A stretch of 22,307 nt of DNA from a virus (Duplodnaviria; Heunggongvirae; Uroviricota; Caudoviricetes): IMG/VR virus record IMGVR_UViG_2851949629_000003; one strand, given 5' to 3'. Positions 887 to 20,521 of this stretch are shown piece after piece. The position numbers were made by a program, and so were the translations under genes. Under the pieces are notes generated by a model, which was given only the letters and a program-made list of their open reading frames with translations, was not told where the DNA came from and ran no database searches. Position 1 is the stretch's first letter, and every line of letters starts with the position of its first letter.

Positions 887-1174
887 TTACTGTCTCTGGC
901 AATCTTTATCGCGATAACGCCTGAAGTACCCTCTCGCTTCCTCATCCATACCAAGAGCCGAATGAGTCCGCTTAACTGCCTGTCTTAAATCTCCGAATCT
1001 GTCTGTAGTTGCTGGTGGGCGTGCCGCCTTACGGATACATTCAGAGCGTCTGTTTGCTGCATGTTCACGTTCTTTATCGCCATCTGCCAGCATCATGACT
1101 TCTGCCCATCGTGCGGCAGCTCTCCGGTATAGCCCTTTTGACTCCAGTTCTTCAGCTTTCCTGTCCCTTATCAT
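887..1174 (-). CDS. PerC/Pch-family transcriptional activator-like protein (95 aa)
   Basis: ATG at 1174 with GAGAGG Shine-Dalgarno 5 nt upstream on the minus strand. The motif LESKGLYRRAAARWAEVM matches the PerC-family signature as I recall it. Confidence 0.65.
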   Translation of the reverse strand: MIRDRKAEELESKGLYRRAAARWAEVMMLADGDKEREHAANRRSECIRKAARPPATTDRFGDLRQAVKRTHSALGMDEEARGYFRRYRDKDCQRQ

Positions 1175-1203: not shown

Positions 1204-1336
1204 AAAAGGTGTTGGTTCAGTTGGTTCAGTTGGTTCAATTTGTAAAGATCGTTGTTTTTATTGTGTTTTTTCTGAAATATTGAACCAACATCAACTCATT
1301 TTGAACCAACACAGCCCAGCTCTGAACCAACAACAC
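1204..1336. repeat. Iteron cluster A: three tandem GTTGGTTCA units (1211-1237) then three inverted TGAACCAAC units (1281-1334); candidate origin/cis-replication element
   Basis: Read directly. Bases 1204-1248 are a perfect 45-bp reverse complement of 11242-11286, with further imperfect similarity out to about 1336. Confidence 0.75.
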
Positions 1337-1385
1337 AGCGATAGCTTTGTGATTGGTCCGTTATTTTCTGGCTGATATTTGAGCG

Positions 1386-1415
1386 TATAACAGTGTTATA
1401 CAGTGGTATACTGTA
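1386..1415 (+). promoter_or_regulatory. Operator-like overlapping palindromes in the promoter region of the RHH gene
   Basis: TATAACA-G-TGTTATA (1386-1400, 7-bp arms) overlaps TACAGT-ggtat-ACTGTA (1399-1415). Both contain -10-like hexamers (TATAAC, TATACT) about 20-45 bp upstream of the 1434 start. Confidence 0.35.
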
Positions 1416-1433
1416 TGGATATTACTCACTGAT

Positions 1434-1889
1434 ATGGTCTTTGCAATGAGCAAATCTAATCTGGTCGCGTTCCGCATCCCATCTGAATTGCAGGATGAGT
1501 TTAATCGGTCTGTTCTCGCTTCTGGAGGGGATAAAACCTCCTGGCTTGTTGATGCGATTCGCATGAAGCTGGGACAGCCGGAAAAGTCTATTGATTCACG
1601 AATGCTTGGGCTGGTGGAGCGCATGGAAAAAGCCGCTGCGTCGCTTATTGCCGGAAAGCCGAACATCCCACCAAAGCCATATAACGAAACGGCAGTTATA
1701 AAGATCATTGCCGATACCATCCGACAGGGATTTGATAATGGGCGCGTGATAGCTGAACGGATCAATGAAGCAGGCTATCAAACAAAAGCTGGTAAAGCGT
1801 GGGATAAAGATATTTACAGCGCGTGGAAGCGTCAGGGAAGCAATGCTGAAAAGTTAAAAGCGGTGATTGATTGTAAGGTCAGCGTATAA
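1434..1889 (+). CDS. Putative ribbon-helix-helix (Arc/Mnt/CopG-like) DNA-binding protein with C-terminal extension (151 aa; alternative start at 1446)
   Basis: N-terminal pattern VAFRIPSELQDEFNRSVLASGGDKTSWLVDAIRMKL fits a beta-strand/helix/helix RHH layout. Preceded by the palindromic operator. Family not confirmed by search. Confidence 0.55.
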   Translation: MVFAMSKSNLVAFRIPSELQDEFNRSVLASGGDKTSWLVDAIRMKLGQPEKSIDSRMLGLVERMEKAAASLIAGKPNIPPKPYNETAVIKIIADTIRQGFDNGRVIAERINEAGYQTKAGKAWDKDIYSAWKRQGSNAEKLKAVIDCKVSV

Positions 1890-1968
1890 ACATGAGTGCC
1901 CATTGGAAAACTGCTTGGGCCAATACCTTTATACACCAGCAGGTGGTGACGATGGGTGAGGATCAGGC

Positions 1969-2190
1969 ATGAAAGGCAGAACGCCACACATTGAACATCA
2001 AGCCAACCACTTCTCGGATGTTCGCAATGAGATGATTGCCATTCGCGGTGATATGCACGGCTTGGAGCGTCGAATTATTGATAAGATTGATGAAAATAGA
2101 GATAAGGCCAGTGAAAATCAAAAGTGGATCATCGGCCTGTTGATTTTATCAATGCTTATCCCGCTACTTATCGCATTGGTCACAAAATGA
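1969..2190 (+). CDS. Small membrane protein, XhlA-like (73 aa): N-terminal coiled-coil-like region and one C-terminal transmembrane helix
   Basis: ATG at 1969 with GGTGAGGA Shine-Dalgarno. C-terminus NQKWIIGLLILSMLIPLLIALV is a hydrophobic helix. Overall layout resembles the XhlA family as recalled. Confidence 0.5.
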   Translation: MKGRTPHIEHQANHFSDVRNEMIAIRGDMHGLERRIIDKIDENRDKASENQKWIIGLLILSMLIPLLIALVTK

Positions 2191-2218
2191 ATATCCAATG
2201 TGTATGCTGTCGATGCTA

Positions 2219-2597
2219 CGCGCGCGTACTTGTCGCAAAATATCAGACAAAAGCCAGATTCAGAACGTCGTGATAACCACCAGCACAACAGAGAGGTCAT
2301 GTAACGCGATTTATCACACCAGATACATGTGATTGGTGTACCCGCATAAAACATCGTCATAGCGCGTCCTGTGCGCATATACGCCGATAATCAACACATC
2401 ACCACCACTCTGTCTCGTGTAGAAAACAGTTTCATGGTATCCCCCGCCATCGTGTGCGTACTGGTCGGACGCAGTTGCAAAAAATTTTGCAACTGATACC
2501 CCTCGCGCGCGTACTGGTCACGAAATTGGTGTTTTGCTGTGGCAGTGATATCAGAAAAATCTTGCTGTTTCACATAAAGCGGATATGCGCGTACTGT
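2219..2597. repeat. Five dispersed copies of a GCGCGTACTGT-like motif in the gap between the XhlA-like gene and the membrane-protein gene
   Basis: CGCGCGCGTACT at 2219-2230 and 2504-2515; GCGTACTGGTC at 2456-2466 and 2509-2519 (identical 11-mers); GCGCGTACTGT at 2587-2597; GCGCGTCCTGT at 2362-2372. TACGCGCGCGTA (2218-2229) is a perfect palindrome. Confidence 0.4.
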
Positions 2598-2693
2598 AAC
2601 GGCCCCATCAACGGGGATCGGATTTGAAATCCCGACCCAAGCTATGTACCAAATGCCATGTCTTGGATATATGATGATTGCCATTCTAAACAA
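2391..2693 (-). CDS. Doubtful hypothetical ORF (100 aa from a TTG start; 97 aa from ATG at 2684)
   Basis: No convincing Shine-Dalgarno. Its start is only ~26 bp from the divergent 2711 start. The repeated DNA motif falls in three different reading frames of this ORF, which argues it is non-coding. Confidence 0.2.
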   Translation of the reverse strand: MFRMAIIIYPRHGIWYIAWVGISNPIPVDGAVTVRAYPLYVKQQDFSDITATAKHQFRDQYAREGYQLQNFLQLRPTSTHTMAGDTMKLFSTRDRVVVMC

Positions 2694-2710
2694 CGCTAAA
2701 GGGGGTTGGT

Positions 2711-3325
2711 GTGAGCAGAAAAGATACTAAAGAATTGCTAACTATCTGCATGGTGTACTTTTCAATTTATTTTTGTGCATACATGATAGTCCCAGATGAG
2801 TTTGAACATGGCAGTATTATTTATTCCATAACATTCTATTTTTTAGAGCTAACACCAATTTTGGCTATCCTTTTGGCAATACATATTTATTTTTCCTTAA
2901 AAAAAGAATCGACTAATTGGGGGAAGGTATGGAGAGACAGAGGATTTCTAACATCACCTAAAGATGATGCATATGAGAGTGATTTTTCTGACTTTATAAC
3001 AAACTACTACTCCAGCGAACAATTCAAAAATAGACTGTCTGATGTTTGGGAAACAGCAATGTATTCCATAGGGATTATATTATTGATACTTACTGGTATT
3101 GCTCAATATGTTTTTAACATTAACTTATCATTAAATCCTGAAAATTTAATATCGCCATTGATTTTTGGTGAGATATTGATCTTCTCATTCGGAATTTTCT
3201 TGAGTGTTGTTCTCTGCTCATTATGCAAACTACTGACTAACAGGTATCCAGGTGAAGCAAGGAGAGCAAGAAAGGCAAATCCATATTATCTTTTATTTCC
3301 TAATGGAGACAGCAGAGATATCTAA
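2711..3325 (+). CDS. AT-rich integral membrane protein with four predicted transmembrane helices (204 aa); function unknown, candidate exclusion/defence effector
   Basis: GTG at 2711 preceded by AAAGGGGG (2698-2705). Roughly one-third G+C by eye, against ~50% or more in the flanks. Four long hydrophobic segments separated by a charged loop. Convergent with the split gene ending at 3344. Confidence 0.7.
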   Translation: MSRKDTKELLTICMVYFSIYFCAYMIVPDEFEHGSIIYSITFYFLELTPILAILLAIHIYFSLKKESTNWGKVWRDRGFLTSPKDDAYESDFSDFITNYYSSEQFKNRLSDVWETAMYSIGIILLILTGIAQYVFNINLSLNPENLISPLIFGEILIFSFGIFLSVVLCSLCKLLTNRYPGEARRARKANPYYLLFPNGDSRDI

Positions 3326-3343
3326 GCCATCCATGGCTACCAG

Positions 3344-4522
3344 TTATTGAGCTTCTTTTTGTGATGCCTGTGCGACTCTGGTGAGCGATTGTGTGACCGT
3401 ACTGATCGCTCTGTCATATGCTGTGCTACCTTTTGGCGTATTTGCCAAACGTAACAAGGCATTTCGTATAACAGGGCTTTCGTATGCCTTCGCGGCTCCG
3501 CCTACGGCACCAGCAGCAGGAACAACAAACGCAGCCGTTTTTAGCATCCCCGCTAATACTGCTGCGTTTATGATGCCACCACCAACTAACAATCCATAAA
3601 GCTGCTGACCATTTAAGTTTTGAACGTTCGCTTTTGCCGCGTGTCTTGTATCGTTGAGGTATTTAATAACGCCGTCCAGTTCCTTTCCATGTACGCCTTT
3701 AAAGAAAGTTGCTGATTGCTTCCTGTTCCGGTGTAACGCATTAATAAACTTCTCAACACTGATATTTCCAGACGGATCAGTCGCCTTATCTACAGCATTC
3801 TGAACTATGGCTGCTCGTGCGTTTTGCCTACCATTGTCATCCAGAAGCCTGTAAAGCTGAGAACGTTCTGATGGGCTTTGGCTAAAAACGAGTTTTGTTA
3901 CATCCTCAGGCGTGGCCTTGCCGCTGGCTATTGCCTTTTGAACGCGCGTTCTTCCCATCATGTCATTGAATTTAGACCATGAGCGATCAACCCTTGCCAT
4001 ATTAATGGCTTCGTCTGCTCCAAGATTTTTGGCTACGGCTTTTTTCATATCCGCCGTATATGCCTTGTAGATAATATCGCTGGCTTTCTGGAGCGTATCT
4101 TTATCAACAGTGTCAGATGACGCCATAAACCGCTTTCGAAGATCGGTTCTGTTTTCCCTCGCCAGACGCAGGTCATTTGGTCCGCTGGTGATATCGTCTT
4201 TAAATTGCTGCAAGACTTTTACCGCGGCTCTATCCTGAGATTTACCCGGGCGGCTTAACACAGCAATCTGATTGTCGATAGCTTTTACCGTGTTTGAGAG
4301 ATCGACAGGGGTATCCCCCATAGCGTCAATTATGCGGTTATATCGCTTTCCTGCTGCCTCAATGAATTTTTGTTGCCCTTTAGTCGCAGATTCATAAAGC
4401 TGTTTATCAGAAATGCCACCCAGACCATCGCTAAATGTTCTGACTAAATTTTCTCGTGCTTGTTGTTGATTCAGCCGATTCTTACCGGTTCCAAAAAAAG
4501 GAACTCTTTCGCCTAATGTCTG
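3344..4522 (-). pseudogene. 3' portion (392 codons) of a ~701-codon Q/A-rich gene split by IS66 copy 1
   Basis: The track ORF 3344-4321 stays open upstream with no stop to the IS boundary at 4522/4523. It is in frame with 7063-7989 once the IS and one target-duplication copy are removed. Confidence 0.7.
4515..4522. repeat. Left 8-bp target-site duplication AATGTCTG of IS66 copy 1
   Basis: Identical to 7055-7062, immediately outside the element ends. Confidence 0.85.
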
Positions 4523-4552
4523 GTAAGCGTTAACGGAGTGCCGTATTGACGC

Positions 4553-6166
4553 TTATTTATTGGTGAGTACTACGTTCCATGGCAGGAGTTCGTCAACTCG
4601 GTTGGAAGGCCATTCCGGCAGTACGCTCAGGATATGGCGCAGATACGCTTCCGGATCGATACCGTTCAAACGGCAGGTGCCGATCAGCCCGTACAACAGT
4701 GCTCCACGCTCGCCGCCGTGATCGCTGCCAAAGAACATAAAGTTTTTCTTTCCGAGACAGACTGCACGAAGCGCTCTTTCCGCAGCATTATTATCCGCCT
4801 CCGCCAGACCGTCATCACTGTAATAACAGAGGACATCCCACTGATTCAGTACATAGCTGAACGCTTCGCCCAGTCTGGATTTTTTCGACAGCGTACCATT
4901 CTTCTCCACCATCCATTCATGCAGCGACGTCAGTAACACTTTGCTTCGCTGCTGCCTGACCGCCAGGCGTTCAGACACCGGCAACCCGCGTATTTCGTGC
5001 TCAATGGCGTACAGTTCACTGATTCGCTTCAGGGCTTCTTCTGCCGTCGCACTTTTGCTGCTGATGTATACATCGTGGATTTTTCGCCGGGCATGGGCCC
5101 AGCACGCAACTTCTGTCAGTGCACCACCTTCACGTTCTGCACTGAACAACCTGTCGTAACCTGTGAACGCATCCGCCTGCAGGATACCCCGGAAGGGGCG
5201 GAGGTGTTGCTCCGGGTGTTTCCCCTGCCGGTTCGGCGAGTACGCGAACCAGACCGCTGGAGGAGATGACGAACCCACATTGCGATCATCCCGGACATAC
5301 GTCCAGATACGCCCTGTTTTCGCCTTTTTCTGACCCGGTGCCAGTACCTTTACCGGTGTGTCATCAGTGTGAACCTTGCGGGTGTTCATTACATAACGGT
5401 ACAGGGCATCATTCACCGGTGTCATTAACTGGCAGCACGCGTCAACCCAGTTGGAGAGTAAGGCCCGGCTCAGTTCGACACCCTGGCGGGCAAAGATTTC
5501 ACTCTGACGATACAGTGGCAGATGTTCGCAGTATTTTCCCGTTAACACGCGGGCAAGTAATCCGGGGCCCGCGATACCACGCTCTATCGGGCGGGACGGC
5601 GCCGGTGCTTCAACAATACAGTCACATTTTGTACAGGCTTTTTTTACCCGTTCTGTGCGGATCACTTTCAGGGCACTGCTCACCAGTTCCAGCTGTTCAG
5701 CGCTGACTTCCCCCAGATAATCCAGCTCACCGCCACACTCCGGGCAACAGCTTTCTTCTGGCTCCAGGCGGTGTATTTCACGGGGAAGGTGTGCCGGTAA
5801 CGGACGACGATGGCGCGACTGTCGCAACTGGCGGGGAACCTGAGGATCGTCTTCCCGCCCACTGTAACGATCGCTGTCCTGTTCACGTTGTTTCAGCAGA
5901 GCCTCAGCCAGTTCAACTTCACGACGCAGTTTTTCAGAACGGGTACCGAACAGCATCCGGCGCAGTTTTTCTATCTGAGCCCGCAGATGTTCTATTTCCC
6001 GTTCATCTTCTTCGATCTTTTCTTCGGCACGTGTCAGTGCAGAGCGCAGGAAGGCTTCCGTCTCTTCAACCAGACTCAGTTGCTGGTCTTTCTGACGGAG
6101 GGCTTCAGCCTGCTCAGAGAGCAACCTTTCCAGCTCTGCGATGCGAATGAGGTATTTCTGACTCAT
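4553..6166 (-). CDS. tnpC: IS66-family transposase TnpC (537 aa)
   Basis: Long ORF with coiled-coil N-terminus and Cys-rich zinc-finger-like segment (CPECGG...CTKCDC), typical IS66 ORF3 layout. About 90% identical to the second copy. Confidence 0.9.
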   Translation of the reverse strand: MSQKYLIRIAELERLLSEQAEALRQKDQQLSLVEETEAFLRSALTRAEEKIEEDEREIEHLRAQIEKLRRMLFGTRSEKLRREVELAEALLKQREQDSDRYSGREDDPQVPRQLRQSRHRRPLPAHLPREIHRLEPEESCCPECGGELDYLGEVSAEQLELVSSALKVIRTERVKKACTKCDCIVEAPAPSRPIERGIAGPGLLARVLTGKYCEHLPLYRQSEIFARQGVELSRALLSNWVDACCQLMTPVNDALYRYVMNTRKVHTDDTPVKVLAPGQKKAKTGRIWTYVRDDRNVGSSSPPAVWFAYSPNRQGKHPEQHLRPFRGILQADAFTGYDRLFSAEREGGALTEVACWAHARRKIHDVYISSKSATAEEALKRISELYAIEHEIRGLPVSERLAVRQQRSKVLLTSLHEWMVEKNGTLSKKSRLGEAFSYVLNQWDVLCYYSDDGLAEADNNAAERALRAVCLGKKNFMFFGSDHGGERGALLYGLIGTCRLNGIDPEAYLRHILSVLPEWPSNRVDELLPWNVVLTNK

Positions 6167-6196
6167 GACCGTTTTTATAATGCGGTCAGGAGTTTT

Positions 6197-6547
6197 TTAC
6201 AACATTGTCAGTGAGTTACGGCTGGATGTTTTTGGCTGACGCCAGTCCAGCTTATCGAGGAGCATTGCCAGTTGCGAGCGGGTAATGGATACCTTGCCGT
6301 CACGTACCGCAGGCCAGATAAACTGGCCTTCCTCCAGGCGTTTGGTGAACAGGCACAGACCATCAGCATCAGCCCAAAGAATTTTGACGGTGTCACCCCG
6401 TCGGCCACGGAAGATAAACAGGTGACCGGAGAAGGGATTATCATTCAGCACATGTTGTACCTGTTCTCCCAGTCCGTTGAAGGATTTACGCATATCGGTA
6501 ACGCCGGCAACGAGCCAGATACGGGTACCTGATGGGAGTGAGATCAT
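6197..6547 (-). CDS. tnpB: IS66-family TnpB accessory protein (116 aa)
   Basis: Middle ORF of the IS66 triplet. Its start overlaps the tnpA stop (6544-6547). Confidence 0.85.
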   Translation of the reverse strand: MISLPSGTRIWLVAGVTDMRKSFNGLGEQVQHVLNDNPFSGHLFIFRGRRGDTVKILWADADGLCLFTKRLEEGQFIWPAVRDGKVSITRSQLAMLLDKLDWRQPKTSSRNSLTML

Positions 6548-6969
6548 CTTCCCCTCCCGGTCAGTTCACGGATCAACACTGTGAGCAGCTCTGGCGATGG
6601 ATTTTCCAGCGTCATGTTACCGTGACGGAATTCCACCTTGCAGGAACTGGCACTGACTCTGGTCTGAGTGGAAGTGGATAAAGACGGCGCAATGGCCGCC
6701 ACAGGTTCTTTCTGCTCATCCGGCGTTATTTCTACAGGTAATAATTCAACGCCAGTGTCAGAAGAGGTCGTTACCGGAAGACGCCGCGAAACACGCCCTT
6801 CGTTCTGCCAGAGCCTGAGCCATTTGAAAATAACATTATCATTGACGCCATTTTCACGTGCAATCTGTGCAACACAAGCTCCAGGTTGTGATGCCAGTTC
6901 CACCATACGAAGTTTGAATTCATTCGAATAGTTTTTACGAGGTTCTTTTCGCCAGTCCTGTAATTCCAT
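6544..6969 (-). CDS. tnpA: IS66-family TnpA (141 aa, helix-turn-helix)
   Basis: First ORF of the IS66 triplet, with a conserved N-terminal DNA-binding-like segment (FKLRMVELASQPGA...IFKWLRLWQ). Confidence 0.85.
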   Translation of the reverse strand: MELQDWRKEPRKNYSNEFKLRMVELASQPGACVAQIARENGVNDNVIFKWLRLWQNEGRVSRRLPVTTSSDTGVELLPVEITPDEQKEPVAAIAPSLSTSTQTRVSASSCKVEFRHGNMTLENPSPELLTVLIRELTGRGR

Positions 6970-7054
6970 ACTTAGATGTCCGTCTATATCAGATGGGCGT
7001 CTAAGTTACCAATTCTCGTCTGATGGCTACATACGGCGGTCAGTTTACGCTTAC

Positions 7055-7062
7055 AATGTCTG
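7055..7062. repeat. Right 8-bp target-site duplication AATGTCTG of IS66 copy 1
   Basis: Identical to 4515-4522. Confidence 0.85.
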
Positions 7063-7989
7063 AGCCTGACTCTGCATAAAGGTTTTATCTTTCAGCATGT
7101 CACTGGTCATTAACGGCAGATTTCTTTCCGATGCAAAGTCGACAGCAGCCTTTGCTTCAGGCGACATATCACCACGAACAGCCCTCGAAACCGCACTCGC
7201 TGTATTTTCCAGCCCCTTACCAATACCACCAATGCCAGCAGAAATTACCGTTTGTAACGGATCAATATCTTCTCCACCAGCGAGGCTGGTGGCTCCCTGT
7301 AGTGCTAAATCTGTAGCTGCTGATTTCCCTATGGCCCCCAGCACCGTTCCGGCCCTGCCCGCTGGTGTAAACGCCAGCGCATTAGCCAGAAACGATGCCA
7401 CGTCTTGCGGCGATAAACCCGGCTTGTTCAGAGCATAATCACCGGATGGCAGGGAAACGATAGTGTTACCCTTCTCATCCTGCCTTAATTTCGCTCCCAT
7501 GCTCTGAAGAATCTTTTCCTGAGATGCGTCAGAGCCGAAAAGTTGAGACCATCGAGTTTTTAGAGCATCCATGCTGAGTGAGGTTAACTCTGGGGCAAGG
7601 TCGACATTTTGCAGTCTCTCCATCTCTGGAGTCATTCGGCTTTCGCCTGTTATAGCATCGCGCATCGCAGCCCCAAGGCTGGCTCCCTGTTCTGCTGAAC
7701 GCTCAAGCCCCTCTCTTTGCTGAGTAGCTAACTTTGCATACCCTGACGCAAGAGAATTATCAGATGATGTATGTTGAATATTTTGAGTTGCTGATTGGGC
7801 TCGGTCTATTTCATTCGTTGATGGTAGTGGATAGGCAGCATAAAAAGCCTGCTTAGCCTGCTCTACACTTTCTCCGGCTTGCGGGGCAACGACTTCATTG
7901 AAGTATTGCTCCTGAGCCTGCGCTTTTTGTTCTGGTGCTAACGCCTGATACTGTGGAGAAGCGATAACATCTTTCCATGCTTTAGCCAT
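7055..7989 (-). pseudogene. 5' portion (native codons 7063-7989, 309 aa) of the IS-split ~701-codon gene
   Basis: ATG at 7987-7989 overlaps the upstream stop (TAATG). The apparent stop at 7051-7053 lies inside the IS terminus. Frame continues into 4522 when the IS is excised. Confidence 0.7.
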
Positions 7990-9410
7990 TAATCACCCCA
8001 TAGTGAAGAAAAGTTACTGCTGGCTGCTGGCTGTGATACCTGCTCAGATTGCGGCAATGTCTGCGACGAAGAAGAAGTTCCTCTGTCAACTGCTGAAATA
8101 ACCCGCAAAGCATCATAAGCTCGACCAGAAGCAGCTTTCAGCGAATTGAACTGGTTTTCCATCTTCCGGCGCTTGGTATCAATGGTTTTTGTGGAGTCGC
8201 CAGGCTGAGGGAAATACATTTGATAATATTTTGACATTTCAGCAGGTACGATAGCTGCCCCTGTTTCCTGACGGAGTATTGCCATTATTGCGTCATTAGC
8301 ATTAACAACGTATTGCTGCTCTGTTGGGCTGAGCGTTAAGTTAGCCAGCGTCCCATTACCCAAAGCATTATTAATGATCGCCACTCGCTGTGGGCTAAGC
8401 TGGTCTTTCAGTGTATCTATTGAATCAAGAGCATCCCTAACCCTGTATGCAAATCCAGCAGCTTTTTTAGCCCCTTCTGGCGACTTTTCCATGATCTTTT
8501 GGGCTGTTGGCAAAGCTATTGGACGAAACCCATCTCCAGATATTGGCTGGTTTAGTTTTCCCTGCTCTTCACTTCCGTCTGTGTAGTATTTTGTGACAGT
8601 GCCATCATCGTTTTCTCTAACACTCATTAATTTTTTGGCGTTTGTATTAATTCCAGCCGCTGCCGCAAATGCCGCCGCCCCCTCTGGATCCTCCTTTAAC
8701 ATTTGAGCGTACTGATTGTAATTCTGCATTGCTGCTGTTGGTGCATATGCTGACGTTAACGCATTTGCTCGGCTAATATCCTGCCCTCTCGCCTGAAGTG
8801 CTTCGCCAGCCTGATTGCTGCGGATTGTTTCTGCCAACTTGCCACGCTCAATATCCCGACCTTCCATTTGATCTTTGATATCGAAATACTTCTCATGACC
8901 GAGAGAAAACAGTGCCATACTACCAGCAAGCCGCTGGAATCCCTGTGGATCATTAACATGCATTTCGGCAACAGACTCAGGAGAAATTCCCAAGCGACGC
9001 ATTTCATCTTCGTTATCTGCTATGAATTTTCCAAATGCCCCAGTTCCGAGCGAAGATGCGATTTGAGCACTAGTCGCAAGATGACCAATAGAATTTCTCT
9101 GGTCGTCATCAATAAAGCCCATCCCTTTCTGAACGCTTTCAAATTCTTCTGGATACTCAGAAATAAGACTGCGCATTTTGTTTCTGTCTCCAGACTCAAA
9201 AGCCCCGGCATATGCTTTCTGAAACTCTGCTTTACGCTGTTGTTGACGTGCCTGCTGATTAATCTCAGCAACGCCTCTTAGCCCCTGTAGCGCCATTAAA
9301 CCTACGTTTGGCTGCTGCTGATACTGCACAGGCTGAGGAACGGAAGAACGAGGAGCATTATCATTTTGCGGTGCCATGCTAGGCAGCCCGCCAAGTTGCC
9401 ATGTCGCCAT
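7989..9410 (-). CDS. Q-rich low-complexity protein (473 aa); possible phage ejection/DNA-transfer-type protein
   Basis: Coupled to both neighbours by TAATG overlaps at 9410 and 7989. Q/A-rich, coiled-coil-like composition. Family assignment is inference. Confidence 0.75.
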   Translation of the reverse strand: MATWQLGGLPSMAPQNDNAPRSSVPQPVQYQQQPNVGLMALQGLRGVAEINQQARQQQRKAEFQKAYAGAFESGDRNKMRSLISEYPEEFESVQKGMGFIDDDQRNSIGHLATSAQIASSLGTGAFGKFIADNEDEMRRLGISPESVAEMHVNDPQGFQRLAGSMALFSLGHEKYFDIKDQMEGRDIERGKLAETIRSNQAGEALQARGQDISRANALTSAYAPTAAMQNYNQYAQMLKEDPEGAAAFAAAAGINTNAKKLMSVRENDDGTVTKYYTDGSEEQGKLNQPISGDGFRPIALPTAQKIMEKSPEGAKKAAGFAYRVRDALDSIDTLKDQLSPQRVAIINNALGNGTLANLTLSPTEQQYVVNANDAIMAILRQETGAAIVPAEMSKYYQMYFPQPGDSTKTIDTKRRKMENQFNSLKAASGRAYDALRVISAVDRGTSSSSQTLPQSEQVSQPAASSNFSSLWGD

Positions 9411-10087
9411 TAGAATCCAAGCCCCCCAACAAGACCAATAAGCCCACCACCAATAGCCCCGGCGACATTACCTATACCCGGAACAACGGAACCAAGTTGC
9501 GCACCCGCTAAAGCGCCTGATGCCGCCCCACCAATACCACGCGCAAGACTGGATGGCTGCTGCGCCTGACCTGCACGAATAGCGCCAAGCCCCTGCAAGA
9601 GTTGCCCGGTATTATTGGCGTAGTTTTGCCCTGCTGTTGCCTGCCCTGATGCCGCATTCATCCCGACATTTAGCAGGTTTCCATAATTTTGCATTTGCCC
9701 ACTGAGCCAATTGTTATAAAGCATGGGCGCAATGGAAGATAACTGGTTACTGGTAGCTGTTGAGCCAAGCCCCCCGGTAGCTTCTGCTGAGACAAGGTTC
9801 TGATAACGGGCCTGATCTGCCTGTGTTTTATATAAACCAGAACCAAAGAAATCATTCGCGGCTTTATTCTGCCCTTCCAGAGTCATCAGTCCTTGTAGTT
9901 GTTGTAAAGCAGGCAATCCGACTTCTGCATACGGCTTGAGATTATTCATCACCGTATTCCACTGCTCGCGCTGCAAATCAATTGCCTGCTGCTGGGCCTT
10001 CGCCTGAGCTTTAGAGGCACCACCATCACCGCCTTTTTCGTATACGGCACGATTGAGATGTTTATGAGCTATATGGGTAATTAACAT
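9410..10087 (-). CDS. Gly/Gln-rich protein with glycine-zipper-like hydrophobic C-terminus (225 aa); possible ejection-type protein
   Basis: Start overlaps the upstream stop by 7 nt (ATGTTAA). C-terminus GIGGAASGALAGAQLGSVVPGIGNVAGAIGGGLIGLVGGLGF. Confidence 0.75.
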   Translation of the reverse strand: MLITHIAHKHLNRAVYEKGGDGGASKAQAKAQQQAIDLQREQWNTVMNNLKPYAEVGLPALQQLQGLMTLEGQNKAANDFFGSGLYKTQADQARYQNLVSAEATGGLGSTATSNQLSSIAPMLYNNWLSGQMQNYGNLLNVGMNAASGQATAGQNYANNTGQLLQGLGAIRAGQAQQPSSLARGIGGAASGALAGAQLGSVVPGIGNVAGAIGGGLIGLVGGLGF

Positions 10088-10542
10088 TCGCTGAGTTCCT
10101 TATATTGTTGCCGTGTTAACTGATAAAGCGTTACGCCGACGGGTTTACCACATCTGATATATGCATCGGCCAGGTGACCAACACGGGTAGCGCCAAGCAA
10201 ACGGATAATTGCCCGTCCGTATTTCGTGGTGTCAGGAACCATGGTGATGCTGTTAAGGAATGGTGAGTTTTCGAGAAGCCATTTGCAGAACAATCGATGC
10301 CCTTGCAGTGCATATTCACCACGGAATCCGGGGTCGTACACCGCATGGCATTCAACAATGCTATGCCAGAAGTTACGCACTTCATGAACGCCTGTCAGCA
10401 CTAATCCTTCGTAGATGCCGAGATATACCGCATCAGGCTTGATGTAGTACGTGTGCCCCGGCTCAACAATATTTTCGGTATTGCCAGGCTCGTTAAGAAA
10501 GGCCTGTAATCGCACCGGGTTATCAATAAATTTTAGTTCCAT
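10081..10542 (-). CDS. Hypothetical protein (153 aa), first large gene of the cassette
   Basis: ATG at 10542 with weak GGATGG Shine-Dalgarno. Coupled to the downstream gene. Confidence 0.7.
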   Translation of the reverse strand: MELKFIDNPVRLQAFLNEPGNTENIVEPGHTYYIKPDAVYLGIYEGLVLTGVHEVRNFWHSIVECHAVYDPGFRGEYALQGHRLFCKWLLENSPFLNSITMVPDTTKYGRAIIRLLGATRVGHLADAYIRCGKPVGVTLYQLTRQQYKELSEC

Positions 10543-10558
10543 GCGGTGCCATCCGTTT

Positions 10559-10720
10559 TCACATACAGCCTGCCAGCGCCTTATCTATTAACCCTCGTGC
10601 AATTTCATGCAGAGTTGGCGCTACTCCAATTCCTGATTTTTTACGCTGCTCTTCCTGAATTTTCTTTATCGCTTCCATTTGCTTCTCACTTATCAATACC
10701 GGCTTTACTGAAATAGCCAT
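10559..10720 (-). CDS. Small hypothetical protein (53 aa), possible leader or small regulator of the cassette
   Basis: Not in the supplied track (under 60 aa). ATG at 10718-10720 preceded by AAGGGGG. Translates to MAISVKPVLISEKQMEAIKKIQEEQRKKSGIGVAPTLHEIARGLIDKALAGCM. Stop is 17 bp before the 10542 start. Confidence 0.4.
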   Translation of the reverse strand: MAISVKPVLISEKQMEAIKKIQEEQRKKSGIGVAPTLHEIARGLIDKALAGCM

Positions 10721-10738
10721 AACGCCCCCTTAGAACTG

Positions 10739-10790
10739 TATAAAACAACAGTTATTATAGTTTCGCAAATCGCAATATTCATCATCGTAA
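10739..10790 (-). promoter_or_regulatory. Candidate sigma70 promoter for the cassette operon
   Basis: Minus-strand TATAAT (plus 10754-10759) about 34 nt upstream of the 10720 ATG. The -35 is weak, with two TTGCGA repeats nearby. Confidence 0.25.
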
Positions 10791-10813
10791 TTGCAAAATA
10801 TGAAACAAATAGC

Positions 10814-10846
10814 ACAAAAAAACGCCACCGCTCAGTAGCTGGTGGC
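10814..10846 (-). terminator. Rho-independent terminator on the minus strand, downstream of the primase operon and iteron cluster B
   Basis: Minus-strand RNA GCCACCAGCUACUGAGCGGUGGC (GC-rich stem) followed by GUUUUUUUG. Confidence 0.55.
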
Positions 10847-11041
10847 ATCGTTCTGTGTGTCAGGTTTTGACAGGTTTTTTATGGACTCTAAAAACTATAT
10901 TTATGGTGTCGCATTACTCTTCACGGCAGGCGCTTTTCAGTTCTGCCCTTGCTTCTGGCTCCATTGGTAATTTGATTCGCGATCAGCTATGCGGATGGTT
11001 TGCTGAACAGGCATAACAACTTCTCAGGGGCTGTTTTCTGA

Positions 11042-11118
11042 ACTACGAAAATTTCGTAGTGCTCACTTTCAAAAACGTCACGCCCTTGTACACAGGATTT
11101 TACGAAAGTCTCGTAAAA
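11042..11118. promoter_or_regulatory. Two palindromes sharing a TTACGAAA/TTTCGTAA core; candidate protein-binding sites
   Basis: ACTACGAAA-A-TTTCGTAGT (11042-11060, 9-bp arms) and TTTTACGA-aagtc-TCGTAAAA (11098-11118, 8-bp arms). Confidence 0.3.
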
Positions 11119-11160
11119 CACTCTCTGATGCCAGCCAGGTGTTGTGCGCATCAATTCAGT

Positions 11161-11286
11161 CACATTGTGTTGGTTCAAAATACCGTGTTGTTGGTTCAGT
11201 GTTGGTTCAATAAAAAGAATAAAATCATTATAAAACAATACTCTTTACAAATTGAACCAACTGAACCAACTGAACCAACACCTTTT
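11161..11286. repeat. Iteron cluster B: three GTTGGTTCA units (11169-11209) and three tandem TGAACCAAC units (11253-11279); inverted copy of cluster A, directly 3' of the primase gene
   Basis: Read directly. 11242-11286 is the exact reverse complement of 1204-1248. Confidence 0.75.
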
Positions 11287-11304: not shown

Positions 11305-14064
11305 TCATTCTTCAGATGAGTTATAATCTCCTGGCTGGTAATTGAGTACATAAACGTTTATTTGTCGTCCCTGAATACGTGGTGATTTTCTTTGGTATCC
11401 ACGACCGCTGTTTGGTGGGGTTAGCATCCCGGCTTTTTTCAACACTTCAGCAAACTGTTTTGCGTTGAAACCACATGCGATCTCCTTTTCAAATGTGGCC
11501 GGGAATGTGTAGAAAATCATTGGGCTTTCGTCATGTTCTCCACGCTGACGGTATCCGGCTAAATCTTTGATGGGCAAATCTGCCGGGCTGTATGGAAATG
11601 GTGCAAAACGGCTAAGCCCATAGGCATTAAGAAATGCCTCCGTTTGTTCAATAATCTGCTGATGTTCTTTGTTACCTGTGCCGAACTCGCGCAACCATGC
11701 GTTATAGCTGTGCTGTATCGCATCACGGCATGTCTGAGCATCCCAGCCTGTTACAACCTCGCCTAACAGCAATGCGGCCTCCAGAATGGCAAATCGCGCG
11801 GCTACACGGTGAACCTGCTCACCATAATCGGATGGGATCAGACTTCTCCATCTGCTTTCGCAGTCACGAACAGTTTTAATTGCCTGTTGCTGGTGGTCTG
11901 CCAGCCATTTAATCCACTCACGCCCGGCTGCGCCGTGGTGATGCTGGTAAGCGTCTTTCAGTGCGTCTGCGTGCTGTTTTCCGTTCTGGTAATCGTGAAA
12001 GCGTACTGCTTTACTCAACGGAATATTCAGCAGTCGCACCAGTTGCCCGGCTTTGGTTTTTCGCCCGGAAGTAGCGATAAATGTTTCTAAATCCATTTCT
12101 CCGGTGCTGATTGCCACTGTACGCCAGCGTTTTAGATCCCGGTTTCCACCATCTTTAGCGCCTTGCAGTTTCCCTACACCGTTAAATAACGCATAGGCAG
12201 ACTGTGAAACGCTGACAGGATCTGCGCCCTGACCAACTTCATCAAGCGGCATTAGTCCGTCATTGTGGGCGGCAGCTTCATTTGCCAGCCCCAGCGCGGT
12301 TCCGTACCACGTCAGCCGCAGTAAATCAGGGTTGCCGTATAAGCTGCTCGCCACGTTTGCCGTGGTGGTCTTACCTGCGCTCGACTGCTCATAGAAATGA
12401 ATGCCGAACCCGTCAGCGCCCACCAGCCCAATCAATGGCGCTGCCAGTGCTGCGCCGATCCCGGTCATCATTGAATAGTTACCAAAGGCCAGACGCGCCA
12501 CGCTATCACGCCAGCTTTTCGCGCTCCCTGAGATAGTATATCCGGCTGCGGCTGAGCTTCTCCCGCTGAACAGCACAGGATTTTCAGGTGTTCCGATGAT
12601 TTCCCCATCAGGCATGATGTACGCTCCGCATTGCCAGCCAGTGGCATGAGCAACACGCCACAATTCACGAGAGCCACTGCGTTGTAGCCAGTCTGCCAGT
12701 ATTGCTCTGAGGCTGCTTTTGGTCGTGACATTTACCCCACCAGCTTTAAGTGTGCGCCATCCTTCACGTTCACCAATATCAGCCAGTGGAATGGCAGCGG
12801 TTGTCGGCGTTTCAGAACCAAACGACAGCCAGCGAAGAATGAGATACTGGTCTTTATCGTCTCTGCCAGTACCGATAACGCTTAACGGAGAACATAACCA
12901 GCTTTCGTTATTGATGATTTCTCCACTCTGGCTGTCAGCTCTCGGAGATACCCAATAAATACCATCCTCGCGGCTTTCTATTCTTGGTTTCAGTGGGTCG
13001 GTATCCATAACCTTAAAATCGCTTCCTTCAATGGTCTGTGGCTCCTGTTTCACGCCATTACCCTGTGGTTGGTACATTGATTTATTGAACGCTTCTGTAG
13101 CGCATTTAATGCCGTGTTTTTGGTGGTAATCATTCCAGTCTGCTTTGTGATCTGTCGGGGGTAATGCCACCCATCCAGAAACAGATAAAGCTGCTTTTTC
13201 TGCTGCTATTCTCCCCGTGTTTTGTCTTCCTTCGCTGTGGTCGTTATCCGCAGCAATGATGATTTGTGCTGAAGGAAATTTATCCCGCAGTACCTGGGCG
13301 ACATATAACAGGTTCCCGGCATCAATCGCCGCCACTGTCAGCGCCTCTGGACGAATTAAATGGGCAGATAATGCCGTTGCCAGCCCTTCTGCGATTAAGA
13401 TGCTCTGTGTTGTTTCTGGTGCGTTTATGGCGTGATATGCCCCTCGCTTTGCTGAACCTGTCAGGAGTCTTTTTTCACCATGTGAGGTAATAGTCTGTGC
13501 TGCTGTTACTGCGCCGGATTTATCCACCAGCGCCAGCAACAGAGATCCATCGGGCAACACGGGGAATGTAAAATCACCTACCCCTTTCGCAACCAGATAA
13601 TCAGATTTGCCGTTTACAGCCTTTCTGCGCATGTCATCAAACTGACGGGAAAACGTATCCCGTCTTTGTTGTTCGTCCTTCTCTGCCCTTTTCAGGCGCT
13701 CCTGTTCGCGTCGCTGGCGCTCGGTTTCCAGTTGTTCCCGTTTCTGGCTGGTGGCTTCTGGTGTTTCCGTTGTCCGGTAATCAATACCCAGAACATCAGC
13801 GGCAAGAAGCGCCGCCTCTGTTGTGTCGCAGTTATTTACGCGTTTAATTAAATCCAGCCCATCACCAGCGCCGCACTGATTACAGATGAAGCTACCGCGC
13901 CCGTTGTCATCGAACCGGAATCGATCTTTACCCCCACATGCAGGGCAGGGAGCATGACGGCGTGGAGAGTCAGGGACATTTATGTTCAGGCAGCCCAGCA
14001 CATGAGGCCAGTTGTTTTCAGACGCACTGATAACCTGACGGATAAGATCAATGTTTCGCATCAC
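11305..14064 (-). CDS. Primase-helicase (P4 alpha-like architecture: zinc ribbon + TOPRIM + P-loop NTPase), 919 aa
   Basis: Zinc ribbon CPACGG...CNQCG near the N-terminus, TOPRIM-like acidic motif IIIAADNDH, P-loop-like SAGKTTT. GTG at 14064 or ATG at 14061. Iterons lie immediately downstream. Confidence 0.85.
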   Translation of the reverse strand: MMRNIDLIRQVISASENNWPHVLGCLNINVPDSPRRHAPCPACGGKDRFRFDDNGRGSFICNQCGAGDGLDLIKRVNNCDTTEAALLAADVLGIDYRTTETPEATSQKREQLETERQRREQERLKRAEKDEQQRRDTFSRQFDDMRRKAVNGKSDYLVAKGVGDFTFPVLPDGSLLLALVDKSGAVTAAQTITSHGEKRLLTGSAKRGAYHAINAPETTQSILIAEGLATALSAHLIRPEALTVAAIDAGNLLYVAQVLRDKFPSAQIIIAADNDHSEGRQNTGRIAAEKAALSVSGWVALPPTDHKADWNDYHQKHGIKCATEAFNKSMYQPQGNGVKQEPQTIEGSDFKVMDTDPLKPRIESREDGIYWVSPRADSQSGEIINNESWLCSPLSVIGTGRDDKDQYLILRWLSFGSETPTTAAIPLADIGEREGWRTLKAGGVNVTTKSSLRAILADWLQRSGSRELWRVAHATGWQCGAYIMPDGEIIGTPENPVLFSGRSSAAAGYTISGSAKSWRDSVARLAFGNYSMMTGIGAALAAPLIGLVGADGFGIHFYEQSSAGKTTTANVASSLYGNPDLLRLTWYGTALGLANEAAAHNDGLMPLDEVGQGADPVSVSQSAYALFNGVGKLQGAKDGGNRDLKRWRTVAISTGEMDLETFIATSGRKTKAGQLVRLLNIPLSKAVRFHDYQNGKQHADALKDAYQHHHGAAGREWIKWLADHQQQAIKTVRDCESRWRSLIPSDYGEQVHRVAARFAILEAALLLGEVVTGWDAQTCRDAIQHSYNAWLREFGTGNKEHQQIIEQTEAFLNAYGLSRFAPFPYSPADLPIKDLAGYRQRGEHDESPMIFYTFPATFEKEIACGFNAKQFAEVLKKAGMLTPPNSGRGYQRKSPRIQGRQINVYVLNYQPGDYNSSEE

Positions 14065-14419
14065 CGTACCCCACGTGGTCTATAGCGTTTGCGATATGGC
14101 TAACCAGCATCTGCCACTTGGTTATTCCGTAATCAGTCAGCATGCCATCATTGTTTAGCCACATATCAAATTCAGCGGTTGTCGCAAGTTTCCACTTATC
14201 GCCGTGGACAGTCCTCATTGCTGGGTACATGAATGCGCAAATCAGATCACAAACATCTGACGGCTTCAGAGATGTAGTAATGGTGCGTCCCTCTGGCGTC
14301 TGAATTGCCATTTTCTCTTCACCAGTAGAATGAAGGTTATGAATCCACACAGCACCAGCAATCTTTGCCACCTGCTCTCCGATTGCGGAGCTAAGCGCCA
14401 TTTCTGCATTTTCACGCAT
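14048..14419 (-). CDS. Hypothetical protein (123 aa), replication-module operon
   Basis: ATG at 14419 with GGGAGG Shine-Dalgarno. Overlaps the primase start. Confidence 0.6.
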   Translation of the reverse strand: MRENAEMALSSAIGEQVAKIAGAVWIHNLHSTGEEKMAIQTPEGRTITTSLKPSDVCDLICAFMYPAMRTVHGDKWKLATTAEFDMWLNNDGMLTDYGITKWQMLVSHIANAIDHVGYGDAKH

Positions 14420-15840: not shown

Positions 15841-16031
15841 TTTTCACCCCCAAGAATTACCAGCTCTGCACGGGCATCGTTAACCAAAGATGAGCACGCT
15901 TTAATCGCATCCACGACATCAGCAGCGTCCATCTCTTCAGCCGAAAGACTGACAGCAAGCAGGACAGCCGCTGCTTGCTCGATTAATTGAAGTGCGGACG
16001 TAAGGCGAGGGGTATTAATTGAGTTATTCAT
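15837..16031 (-). CDS. Hypothetical small protein (64 aa from MNNSINT...; track ORF extends to 16088)
   Basis: ATG at 16029-16031 with GGGGG Shine-Dalgarno, in the ATGAATAA overlap with the 355-aa gene stop. Confidence 0.55.
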   Translation of the reverse strand: MNNSINTPRLTSALQLIEQAAAVLLAVSLSAEEMDAADVVDAIKACSSLVNDARAELVILGGEK

Positions 16032-17091
16032 TGGTTGCCCCCGTTTTGCATGGCATTTGTCCACCTTCCAGCAGGAAATGAACGTCACGAACGGCGAGAT
16101 CCAATATCGCGAGTAACGCCTTCAGTTTTTCGTCTCGTGAGGGAGAGTTGCTCACCAGAATGTCATTAATCACTTCTGTCAGTGTGATGATCTGGCTTGT
16201 GCGTTCGAGGGGATCCATATGCACATCGTAGGTTTTAATCATGTGCCACCTCCATGCGGATACGACCAGCAAAAAAGCAGACGTGATCGCGCACCAGAGA
16301 ACGGCGAGCATCGCGTTCAGACTCGGCAGCAATATGATGAATTTTGGCGGTAATTGTCGGGCAATCGCGGCGAACTGCGGCGATAATCCAGATAAATTGC
16401 GGTTTTTGGGTAGGGGTAGTAGCCAGCATGTGGCAGCCTCCTTCAGATAGCAGGTTACGCTACCACCGGAAACGCCAATTTCGCTGGTGGTAGCCCAGAC
16501 AGGGTTGGCGTAACCGGCTCTGAAGGATACCGGCGCTTCCGAAGAAGCCCCCGCCTGAGCCACCATTGATTGACAAAGGCGCTGGATTATACACCAACGC
16601 CCAAAAAATGGGTGAGTCAGACCTACGACATAAAAAAAGACGCTCGGCGCGTCATATGTCGCCTTCAGAATTTTCAGGACGCCAATCCCGGCACCCGTTT
16701 TATGAGGTGCCTTATAACCATAAACCGTGTTGCCGCATAACGGCAAGCTCTTTTTTATGGACTCCGAAAACTCGCTATTGGAAGCACCAGATGCACAGTA
16801 CATCGCGCTCATTTCGTTAACGTCACGCGCGTGGACGAATGTTTTTGTGGAGTCACTACACGAGCGGAAGACATCATCTACGACCAGAAATTCTCTGGCG
16901 CAGCCGCTGACCTTCTCAATGCTAATATCATCGCCCGAGATTTCTGGTATGGTTAAGGCATCCGTTCCGACCACCAGCAAATGATAAACTTTGCTTGTAT
17001 CTGCTGTATTAATGCCTGACTTTGCTGTCATATTGCTGTATTTTGGCGACATACCAGCCAGTGAAAATATCTTCTTCTGGGCGGTTAGCAT
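16024..17091 (-). CDS. Hypothetical protein (355 aa), unrecognised; C-terminal half contains hydrophobic stretches
   Basis: ATG at 17091 with GGAGG Shine-Dalgarno. Coupled to both neighbours. No recognised motif. Confidence 0.55.
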
Positions 17092-17984: not shown

Positions 17985-18014
17985 GTAAGCGTCAACGGAG
18001 CACCGTATTGACGC

Positions 18015-19628
18015 TTATTTATTAGTGAGTACTACGTTCCATGGCAGGAGTTCGTCAACTCGGTTGGAAGGCCATTCCGGCAGTACGCTCAGGATATGGC
18101 GCAGATACGCTTCCGGATCGATACCATTCAACCGGCAGGTGCCGATCAGCCCGTACAACAGTGCACCACGCTCGCCGCCGTGATCGCTACCGAAGAACAC
18201 GTAATTTTTCTTTCCGAGACAGACTGCACGAAGCGCTCTTTCCGCTGTGTTATTGTCCGCCTCCGCCAGACCGTCATCACAGAAGTTGCACAACGCAACC
18301 CAGTGCTTCCTGATATACCGGAACGCATCTCTCAGACGGCATTTTTTCGATAACGTGTGTTCTTTCTCCTGCATCAGCTTATACAGGGAAGTCAGTAGCG
18401 GTTTACTCTGCATTTGCCTGACCGCCAGGCGTTCAGACACCGGCAACCCGCGTATTTCGTGCTCAATGGCGTACAGTTCGCCGATTAGTTTCAGTGCTTC
18501 TTCCGCCGTCGCGCTTTTGGTACTGATATATACATCGTGGATTTTGCGCCGCGCATGAGCCCAGCATCCTGCTTCCGTCAACGCGCCGCCTTCACGTTCG
18601 GCACTGAACAGCCGATCGTAACCTGCGAACGCATCTGCCTGCAGGATACCCCGGAAGGGACGAAGGTGTTGCTCCGGATGTTTACCCTGATGGTCCGGTG
18701 AGTAGGCGAACCAGACCGCCGGAGGTTCTGGCGAACCGGCATTTCGGTCATCCCGGACATACGTCCAGATATATCCTGTTTTCGCCTTCTTCCTGCCCGG
18801 TGCCAGTACTTTTACTGGTGTGTCATCAGTGTGAACCTTGCGGGTGTTCATCACATAACTGTACAGGGCATCATTCAGCGGAGTCATTAACTGGCAGCAC
18901 GCATCAACCCAGTTGGAGAGTAAGGCACGGCTCAGTTCGACACCCTGGCGGGCAAAGATTTCACTCTGACGATACAGTGGCAGGTGTTCGCAGTATTTTC
19001 CCGTTAACACGCGGGCAAGTAACCCCGGGCCCGCGATACCACGCTCTATCGGACGGGATGGTGCCGGTGCTTCAACGATGCAGTCACATTTTGTACAGGC
19101 TTTTTTTACCCGTTCTGTGCGGATCACTTTCAGGGCGCTGCTCACCAGCTCCAGTTGTTCTGCGCTGACTTCCCCCAGATAATCCAGCTCACCGCCACAC
19201 TCCGGGCAACAGCTTTCTTCAGGCTCCAGGCGGTATATTTCACGGGGGAGATGTGCCGGTAACGGACGACGATGGCGCGACTGTCGCAACTGGCGGGGAA
19301 CCAGCGGGTCATCCTCACGCCCACTGTAACGATCGCTTTCCTGCTCGCGTTGTTTCAGCAGGACTTCAGCCTGTTCAACCTCACTACGCAGTTTTTCAGA
19401 ACGGGTTCCGAACAGCATCCGGCGCAGTTTTTCTATCTGAGCCCGCAGATGCTCTATTTCTCGCTCATCTTCTTCGATCTTTTCTTCGGCACGTGCCAGT
19501 GCAGAGCGCAGGAAGGCCTCCGTCTCTTCAACCAGACTCAGTTGCTGGTCTTTCTGACGGAGGGCTTCAGCCTGCTCAGAGAGCAGCCTTTCCAGCTCAG
19601 CGATGCGAATGAGGTATTTCTGACCCAT
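18015..19628 (-). CDS. tnpC: IS66-family transposase TnpC (537 aa), copy 2
   Basis: Collinear with the copy-1 TnpC, about 90% identical by eye. Confidence 0.9.
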   Translation of the reverse strand: MGQKYLIRIAELERLLSEQAEALRQKDQQLSLVEETEAFLRSALARAEEKIEEDEREIEHLRAQIEKLRRMLFGTRSEKLRSEVEQAEVLLKQREQESDRYSGREDDPLVPRQLRQSRHRRPLPAHLPREIYRLEPEESCCPECGGELDYLGEVSAEQLELVSSALKVIRTERVKKACTKCDCIVEAPAPSRPIERGIAGPGLLARVLTGKYCEHLPLYRQSEIFARQGVELSRALLSNWVDACCQLMTPLNDALYSYVMNTRKVHTDDTPVKVLAPGRKKAKTGYIWTYVRDDRNAGSPEPPAVWFAYSPDHQGKHPEQHLRPFRGILQADAFAGYDRLFSAEREGGALTEAGCWAHARRKIHDVYISTKSATAEEALKLIGELYAIEHEIRGLPVSERLAVRQMQSKPLLTSLYKLMQEKEHTLSKKCRLRDAFRYIRKHWVALCNFCDDGLAEADNNTAERALRAVCLGKKNYVFFGSDHGGERGALLYGLIGTCRLNGIDPEAYLRHILSVLPEWPSNRVDELLPWNVVLTNK

Positions 19629-19658
19629 GGCCGTTTTTATAATCCGGCCCGGCGTTTT

Positions 19659-20009
19659 TTACAACATTGTCAGTGCGTTAAGGCGGGATGTTTTTGGCTG
19701 ACGCCAGTCCAGCTTATCGAGGAGCATTGCCAGTTGCGAGCGGGTAATGGATATCTTACCGTCATGCACCGCAGGCCAGATAAACTGACCTTCCTCAAGG
19801 CGTTTGGTGAACAGGCACAGACCATCAGCATCAGCCCACAGGATTTTAATCGTGTCTCCCCGTCGGCCACGGAAGATAAACAGGTGACCGGAGAAGGGGT
19901 TATCATCCAGCACATGCTGTATCTGCTCCCCCAGACCGTTGAAGGATTTACGCATATCAGTAACGCCGGCAACGAGCCAGATACGGGTACCTGATGGGAG
20001 TGAAATCAT
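19659..20009 (-). CDS. tnpB: IS66-family TnpB (116 aa), copy 2
   Basis: Collinear with the copy-1 TnpB. Confidence 0.85.
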   Translation of the reverse strand: MISLPSGTRIWLVAGVTDMRKSFNGLGEQIQHVLDDNPFSGHLFIFRGRRGDTIKILWADADGLCLFTKRLEEGQFIWPAVHDGKISITRSQLAMLLDKLDWRQPKTSRLNALTML

Positions 20010-20443: not shown

Positions 20444-20521
20444 TAGAACTCCGTCTAATTTAGAAGGAGCTCTAATTTAGTCTGCAAGGAGCAGGTGTTA
20501 CAGACGGCATTGGCTTTACGC

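Follow-up and report, generated by a model that had tools for sequence, protein, structure and literature searches.

Why a phage satellite should carry two inverted clusters of one short repeat, the first directly behind its primase gene and the second beyond a long block of accessory genes, is the question raised by the DNA considered here, a stretch of 22,307 nt (IMG/VR record IMGVR_UViG_2851949629_000003; hereafter the window) with an overall A+T content of 51%. By sequence comparison the window is an E. coli phage satellite island (phage-inducible chromosomal island, or PICI) of the EcCIMP1 type, and its primase gene encodes a fused primase-helicase, Pri-Rep. The answer favored here, to which a probability of roughly 0.7 is attached, is that the two clusters would be two units of a single mirror-symmetric Pri-Rep origin, pulled apart by the cargo region.

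The repeat, or iteron, GTTGGTTCA occurs in 12 exact copies in the window, six in each cluster and none elsewhere, against a chance expectation of 0.12 copies on average and 1 at most (100 shuffles of the window). Cluster A (1204-1336) and cluster B (11166-11286) each cover 120-130 bp, and they share a 55-nt inverted repeat that is 95% complementary (1204-1258 with 11232-11286), within which 45 nt match perfectly (1204-1248 with 11242-11286), as well as a second, imperfect pair of arms of 38 nt at 82% (1276-1313 with 11166-11203); the inverted match and the further similarity described in a first-pass annotation of the window are both read directly in the sequence. Unit B starts at a distance of 18 nt from the primase stop codon, just 3' of the gene as that annotation had it, and unit A at 29 nt from the ATG of a gene for a PerC-family regulator. 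The arms are separated by 9,973 nt; because 2,532 nt of this is a secondary IS66-family insertion, the native spacing is ~7.4 kb (it is 6.6 kb in the related island L001 and 8.4 kb in L080), so that the placing of cluster A beside PerC stands, with its distance of 10 kb corrected to that native value. In each cluster a 43-bp AT-rich spacer separates three iterons in tandem from three phased ones of opposite orientation, as listed here with the two neighboring genes.

1204..1374, no strand: origin unit A, the far unit; iteron layout plus central box, also found in EcCIMP1 and in 8 other genera
1211, 1220 and 1229 (span 1211-1237), plus strand: tandem GTTGGTTCA of unit A, exact copies
1238-1280: spacer of unit A, 43 bp, 79% A+T
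1281, 1302 and 1323, minus strand: phased TGAACCAAC of unit A, at 21/21-bp spacing
1364-1374: central box TTTTCTGGCTG, unit A's own copy
11129..11286, no strand: origin unit B, primase-proximal, the mirror image of A; iteron layout plus central box
11253, 11262 and 11271 (span 11253-11279), minus strand: tandem iterons of unit B
11210-11252: spacer of unit B, 43 bp, 86% A+T
11201, 11190 and 11169, plus strand: phased iterons of unit B, at 11/21-bp spacing
11129-11139: central box CCTGGCTGGCA of unit B
11305..14064, minus strand: primase-helicase (Pri-Rep), 919 aa, with zinc ribbon, Toprim, and DUF927 helicase of the Staphylococcus aureus pathogenicity island (SaPI) Rep type
887..1174, minus strand: PerC-family regulator gene (Pfam E 2.6e-33), reading outward from unit A

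Opposed iteron sets around an AT-rich region, the arrangement of SaPI and PICI origins, are found in A and in B alike, and in anatomy each cluster is a complete PICI/SaPI-type origin unit. Other possible contents of the clusters were searched for as well. At the Rfam gathering score no family was found in cluster A or B, and a permissive search returned only sub-threshold, hairpin-like microRNA models; an RNA gene in the clusters was rejected, these matches being far below threshold. No promoter with both hexamers was called in the clusters by a sigma-70 consensus scan, and a terminator scan gave none within them and one outside B, at 10824-10839.

Loci with related primases were drawn from two sources, a single genome for each species (77 loci) and IMG/VR (80 loci); the repeated 8-mer just 3' of each primase gene was identified and then located along the locus, and 136 loci had both a related primase and recognizable iterons. 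Each of the 134 related loci with recognizable iterons has them directly behind its primase gene. In 55 of the 136 the two units are adjacent, with ~12 iterons in the ~300 bp 3' of the primase, and read in order as tandem iterons, AT-rich stretch, phased iterons, central box TTCTGGCTGGCA, phased iterons, spacer, and oppositely oriented tandem iterons; the central box is conserved in these adjacent-type loci and is kept in both units of the window. Two groups of six iterons split by 0.16-9.6 kb of accessory DNA were found in another 31 loci, and a single group in the available DNA of 50, many of which end at contig ends. Judged from these layouts, the norm of the family is a mirror-symmetric double origin, and the window is the version with an accessory region in its middle. 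That the cargo lies inside a duplicated origin, raised in the first-pass annotation only as an alternative, is accordingly what best fits the 55 adjacent and 31 variably split relatives.

The series has intermediate and compact members: a 12.15-kb circular E. coli record holds a miniature version, with units 1.9 kb apart and only o53 and o151 annotated between them, and in a 19-kb circular Klebsiella record the units are adjacent. The deposition of related elements as circular 'plasmids' of 12-19 kb speaks, if only indirectly, for autonomous replication driven by pri-rep with its origin. What lies between the units varies by lineage. In the window it includes P22-type gp14, gp7, gp20 and gp16 (7051-10720), and elsewhere a tape measure protein (L055), a Dit-like protein with a baseplate hub (L035), SLT-domain proteins (L060, L020), the P4 Beta protein (L060), or Fic (L020). 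When phage genomes were searched for the window's origin, a single weak match was obtained, in a Klebsiella phage at 72%. As a separate observation, a Yersinia pekkanenii locus (L034) carries three origins of 10-12 iterons within 6 kb (8154-8421, 12736-13003 and 13917-14214); its primase match is ~1.1 kb longer than usual, and a related protein (P0099) is annotated as HNH endonuclease domain-containing.

At least ten sequence variants of the iteron were distinguished, and in every element both units have the same variant, including the split loci L063 (ACTTATCC, units 7.6 kb apart) and L042 (AACCGACC, 0.4 kb apart). The last ~100 aa of Pri-Rep (encoded at about 11305-11607) covary with the variant: where primases share 97% identity through most of their sequence but are paired with different variants, identity falls to 65-68% in the last ~100 residues, and among pairs at least 90% identical upstream, mean C-terminal identity is 83% where the variant is the same versus 67% where it differs. 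One segment stands out, reading GYQRKSPRI with GTTGGTTCA versus GYQGRV-RE with AGACAACA. The specificity signal indicated by this covariation is in the C-terminal part of the primase and not in its N-terminal domain, where the first-pass annotation had looked for it. The helicase part of Pri-Rep matches 8tch in sequence, and a fold match likewise points to a self-loading Rep.

The far unit was aligned from Escherichia, Cedecea, Leclercia, Rosenbergiella, Chimaeribacter, Pantoea, Lonsdalea, Rahnella, and an Erwinia metagenome-assembled genome. Invariant columns make up 43 of 54 iteron positions versus 16 of 102 others, a contrast that shows, at the level of the alignment, selective conservation of the far unit's iterons. 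Far units are up to 81% identical to the far units of other genera versus 54-67% to the near unit of their own element, and they keep the 21/21-bp phasing versus 11/21 bp in near units; by this likeness across genera and this distinct phasing, the pair of units is old and differentiated. Among 136 units found, 43 bp is the commonest spacer length. The perfect 45-bp match between A and B thus reflects a functional core kept by conservation, not a copy made recently. As its source, recent duplication or gene conversion was rejected, since the core (tandem iterons plus ATTTGTAAAG) is kept across genera, and is also contradicted by an overall identity between A and B of only 67%.

A mechanism can be proposed on this basis, in which a winged-helix-like domain at the C-terminus of Pri-Rep would bind the iterons, the AT-rich spacer would then melt, and the self-loading helicase with its fused primase would begin synthesis at the melted spacer, potentially at both units and perhaps with some cooperation between them. 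In most relatives the units abut with their tandem arrays outermost; in the window's E. coli lineage and several others an accessory region, made up of helper-type virion or ejection genes and of superinfection or defense genes, lies between them, placing one unit just 3' of the primase and the other at the far end by the outward-reading PerC gene.

The first-pass annotation had suggested instead a pair analogous to the ori and crr of P4, and in its strict form, in which initiation at one cluster depends on the primase being bound in cis to both, for instance through a loop, this is a possible reading though a clearly less probable one. It shares with the double origin the same cognate iterons in both clusters and the conservation of the far cluster over long times, and it can point to the P4 record, where type-1 repeats occur in crr 3' of alpha and in ori 4.7 kb away, and to an N-terminal primase domain 33% identical to that of P4 alpha. 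Yet each cluster has by itself all the parts of a self-sufficient SaPI/PICI origin (PMC9371898, PMC6092414), unit spacing ranges from 0 to ~10 kb, many relatives show a single unit, the far cluster lies downstream of the near one and not, as does P4 ori, upstream of the primase operon, and the helicase part is of the SaPI Rep and not the P4 alpha type. Of the P4-like pair, then, the primase-matched variant in both clusters and the conservation of the far one across genera hold up, whereas ~30 loci have only one unit in roughly 9-10 kb of downstream DNA.

Those ~30 loci also weigh against the split double origin, as in them the second unit is either not universally required or sits further out; att repeats were sought to delimit such single-unit islands and were found for few loci only. 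Further weight on the same side comes from L002 and L081, E. coli islands at the yicC site, in which the DNA from 13227 (inside the primase gene) to 11119 (the inner edge of B) is replaced by a DUF5906-type helicase with its own iterons. The helicase, the C-terminal domain and unit B are gone, and unit A stands intact beside PerC without its cognate protein. Comparison with the window shows that unit A and the primase are not passed on as a single block, and taken with the single-unit relatives these islands argue against a strict family-wide need for two units. Because L002 and L081 are ~98% identical to the window around unit A, its intactness there says little about long-term retention; by the same comparison, what they show is modular exchange and not the lasting retention of an orphan A.

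Orphan A units found also beside deleted or truncated primases (L082, L083), together with those beside the non-cognate helicase of L002 and L081 and with mosaic breakpoints that recur among E. coli islands at 1311 (inside A) and 11119 (the edge of B), might suggest that A is a functionless relic of satellite recombination or of an old duplication, carried along with PerC. A relic would be expected to decay, while the far-unit iterons are near-invariant across genera where the DNA between them has diverged, and far units in split loci with other variants keep the cognate variant; this explanation is improbable. That unit A serves mainly as a transcriptional operator, with Pri-Rep on the outer tandem iterons controlling the PerC promoter and no firing at A, is somewhat less so, while still unlikely. 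At 1188-1193 the minus strand reads TATAAT, 17 nt away from the outermost iteron and 13 nt ahead of the PerC ATG; all iteron variants inspected have a TATA-like box just outside their outer tandem iterons, at a short and constant distance, always with an outward-reading gene downstream; and the PerC promoter must be in or beside unit A, because the next upstream gene diverges. Control of PerC by Pri-Rep stays a possibility and not a finding, since the consensus scan yields no complete promoter. The conserved 43-bp AT-rich spacer and the three phased, inverted iterons would be superfluous for an operator, and the roles of operator and origin are in any case compatible.

Inversion of the segment, which the first-pass annotation had also considered, and the related notion that the arms are terminal inverted repeats of a mobile cargo element are together very hard to sustain. 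A perfect inverted match of 45 bp permits homologous inversion in principle. A synthetic inversion junction (primase 3' end, arm, and inner flank of A) was searched for in 5,426 complete E. coli genomes; 552 of them hold pieces of the query and no record covers at least 80% of it. Gene order and orientation inside the bracket are identical in all islands inspected, and with the junction absent from these genomes an invertible segment is not supported. As for a mobile element, the cargo differs between identical repeats, the arms consist of primase-matched iterons, no recombinase or transposase is present apart from the IS66 copies, each with ends of its own, and the arms have no target duplication outside them.

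An extension of the split double origin is put forward tentatively, and is doubtful at present: the two units may act as a long-range pair held by Pri-Rep and also as 'portable homology' at both ends of a helper-specific cassette. The idea follows from cassettes that vary between identical units and from the mosaic breakpoints at 1311 and 11119. If it is right, satellites could exchange whole cassettes of virion genes or defense genes by recombining within these units, and early after induction the dosage of a cassette would rise through origin firing to either side of it. Beside this may be set the observation that the DUF5906-type helicase of L002 has CCTGTACCACCTATACCA-like iterons in inverted clusters of its own (27547-27661 and 28660-28770), placed around two small genes and carrying the same central box, TTCTGGCTGGC; with this cluster pair the split-origin theme recurs with another helicase type.

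Read along the minus strand, the island has the order integrase, IS66-family copy, antA, DUF4222, 'Ash', several small open reading frames (ORFs), primase-helicase and unit B, followed by gp14, gp7, gp20, a split gp16-like gene, a few small genes, unit A, PerC, and a chromosomal LysR pseudogene. Its other principal features are as follows.

21093-22307, minus strand: integrase, one end of the island
1434..1889, plus strand: o151, first gene within the bracket counted from unit A
3344..4321, minus strand: C-terminal part of a gp16-like injection protein, severed from its N-terminal part by IS66 copy 1
4523..7054, minus strand: IS66-family element copy 1, with three ORFs and an 8-bp target duplication
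7051..10720, minus strand: B-side cargo, namely o53, P22-like gp14 (DUF2824), gp7, gp20 and the gp16-like N-terminal part (Pfam; comparison with L001 and L080)
17985-20525: second IS66-family element, 90% identical to copy 1

IS66 copy 1 interrupts the gp16-like gene (3344-4321 and 7051-7989), which is whole in L001 and L080, and beside copy 2 a 616-bp deletion has truncated alpA, intact in relatives. The order in Gram-negative PICIs is an integrase at the end, an adjacent alpA and then pri-rep, in one orientation, and the window has both integrase and primase. Pieces of the island are present in roughly 550-660 of the 5,426 complete E. coli genomes (~10%).

Several smaller observations concern the genes within and around the bracket. 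The N-terminus of o151 looks ribbon-helix-helix-like, and the gene has its own operator-like repeats, GTATAACAGTGTTATACAGTGGTATACTG, and a -10 element at 1386-1414, with TGTCTTAC repeats and TAAAAT in the same place in other genera; o151 is probably an autoregulated DNA-binding protein. The gene is present without an adjacent iteron unit in L022, L024, L040 and L062 and so is not tied to unit A, and the possibility that A is the control region of o151 was rejected, as o151 has its own operator repeats and is iteron-free in four genera. Repeats of CGCGCGCGTACTKGTC occur at 2219-2241, 2447-2466 and 2500-2526, in three copies in L002, and also upstream of o151 in L061. A weak PHROG hit (E 3.5e-4) likens the o204 frame (2711-3325) to SieA-like superinfection exclusion, in agreement with the immunity to superinfection that has been reported for EcCIMP1. 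Between unit B and o53, a conserved non-coding stretch (10824-11120) with two short palindromes and, on the minus strand, the strong terminator at 10824-10839 is a candidate small RNA or regulatory region; it is similar to 16751-16846, upstream of IsrK. Rfam matches to C4 antisense RNA (79.9 bits) and IsrK (67.8 bits) are at 16483-16710 on the minus strand, within the 'Ash' ORF (16024-17091), at whose position Icd-like genes are annotated in L085 and L087; the C4 and IsrK matches suggest a P1-like c4/icd/ant immunity module.

The origin family of the window is widespread in Enterobacterales, and its significance is chiefly that PICI satellites have been described with a single origin after pri-rep, whereas this family would have a mirror-image double unit that tolerates, and in many cases contains, a whole accessory cassette within it. 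Spacings of 0-10 kb and at least ten iteron variants form a natural series usable as test material, with which one could ask how many loading units, one or two, a self-loading helicase requires, whether looping lets distant units cooperate, and what residues determine iteron specificity. Since the promoter region of PerC, a virulence-related regulator, falls inside an origin unit, PerC expression may be linked to replication of the satellite. For annotation, an iteron cluster kilobases from a primase is not to be taken as a second element or a transposon end.

Among known systems, P4 is like the window in having two separated clusters of one short iteron, one of them right after the primase-helicase gene, and in P4 both ori and crr are required for replication. 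The likeness is limited: the N-terminal primase domains of P4 alpha and the window primase are 33% identical over 359 aa, the helicase and C-terminal parts are unalignable, and the window's enzyme is not a primase-helicase of the alpha type, which carries an origin-binding domain of its own. P4 crr is, in the annotated record, a pair of 120-bp direct repeats, unlike the inverted copies of the window, and P4 ori lies upstream of the alpha operon, 4.7 kb from crr, whereas B occupies the crr position and A is not upstream but further downstream, beyond the cargo. The earlier analogy had located the P4 origin 3' of its primase gene, where the region just 3' of alpha is in fact crr. Single initiators acting on iteron sets kilobases apart, by looping or handcuffing, are known from R6K (gamma with alpha/beta), P1 (incC/incA) and F (incB/incC); these initiators are of the Rep_3 type, and their distant sets neither repeat the whole origin in mirror image nor bracket an accessory cassette.

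The closest relationship is with the Pri-Rep origins of SaPIs and PICIs, in which iterons lie directly 3' of pri-rep, opposed sets flank an AT-rich region, and Rep is a self-loading helicase with its specificity in the C-terminal domain (Fillol-Salom et al. 2018, PMC6092414; Qiao et al. 2022, PMC9371898). The 3' iterons, opposed sets and AT-rich region are shared with the window, whose helicase is of the Rep type and whose specificity would likewise lie in the C-terminal domain; the window family differs in having two mirror units, ~12 iterons, and often kilobases of accessory genes between. No mention of paired or split units was found in PMC6092414, PMC9371898 or PMC11773190, the last of which (Pick et al. 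2025) describes EcCIMP1, an E. coli PICI at thrW that is induced and transferred by the P22-like phage Kapi1 and for which helper-phage-dependent excision, replication and transfer were shown. EcCIMP1 agrees with the window in integration region (the thrW/proA side), gene order, primase, P22-like ejection genes and PerC, its homologous segments being mostly 95-99% identical, and differs in lacking the window's two IS66-family insertions and its loss of part of alpA. Iterons or an origin are not mentioned in the EcCIMP1 paper (PMC11773190), yet its sequence has the same 6+6 layout, with units 8.4 kb apart. The split double origin is, in this comparison, a departure from the single origin of PICIs and SaPIs that stays within the PICI/SaPI origin type.

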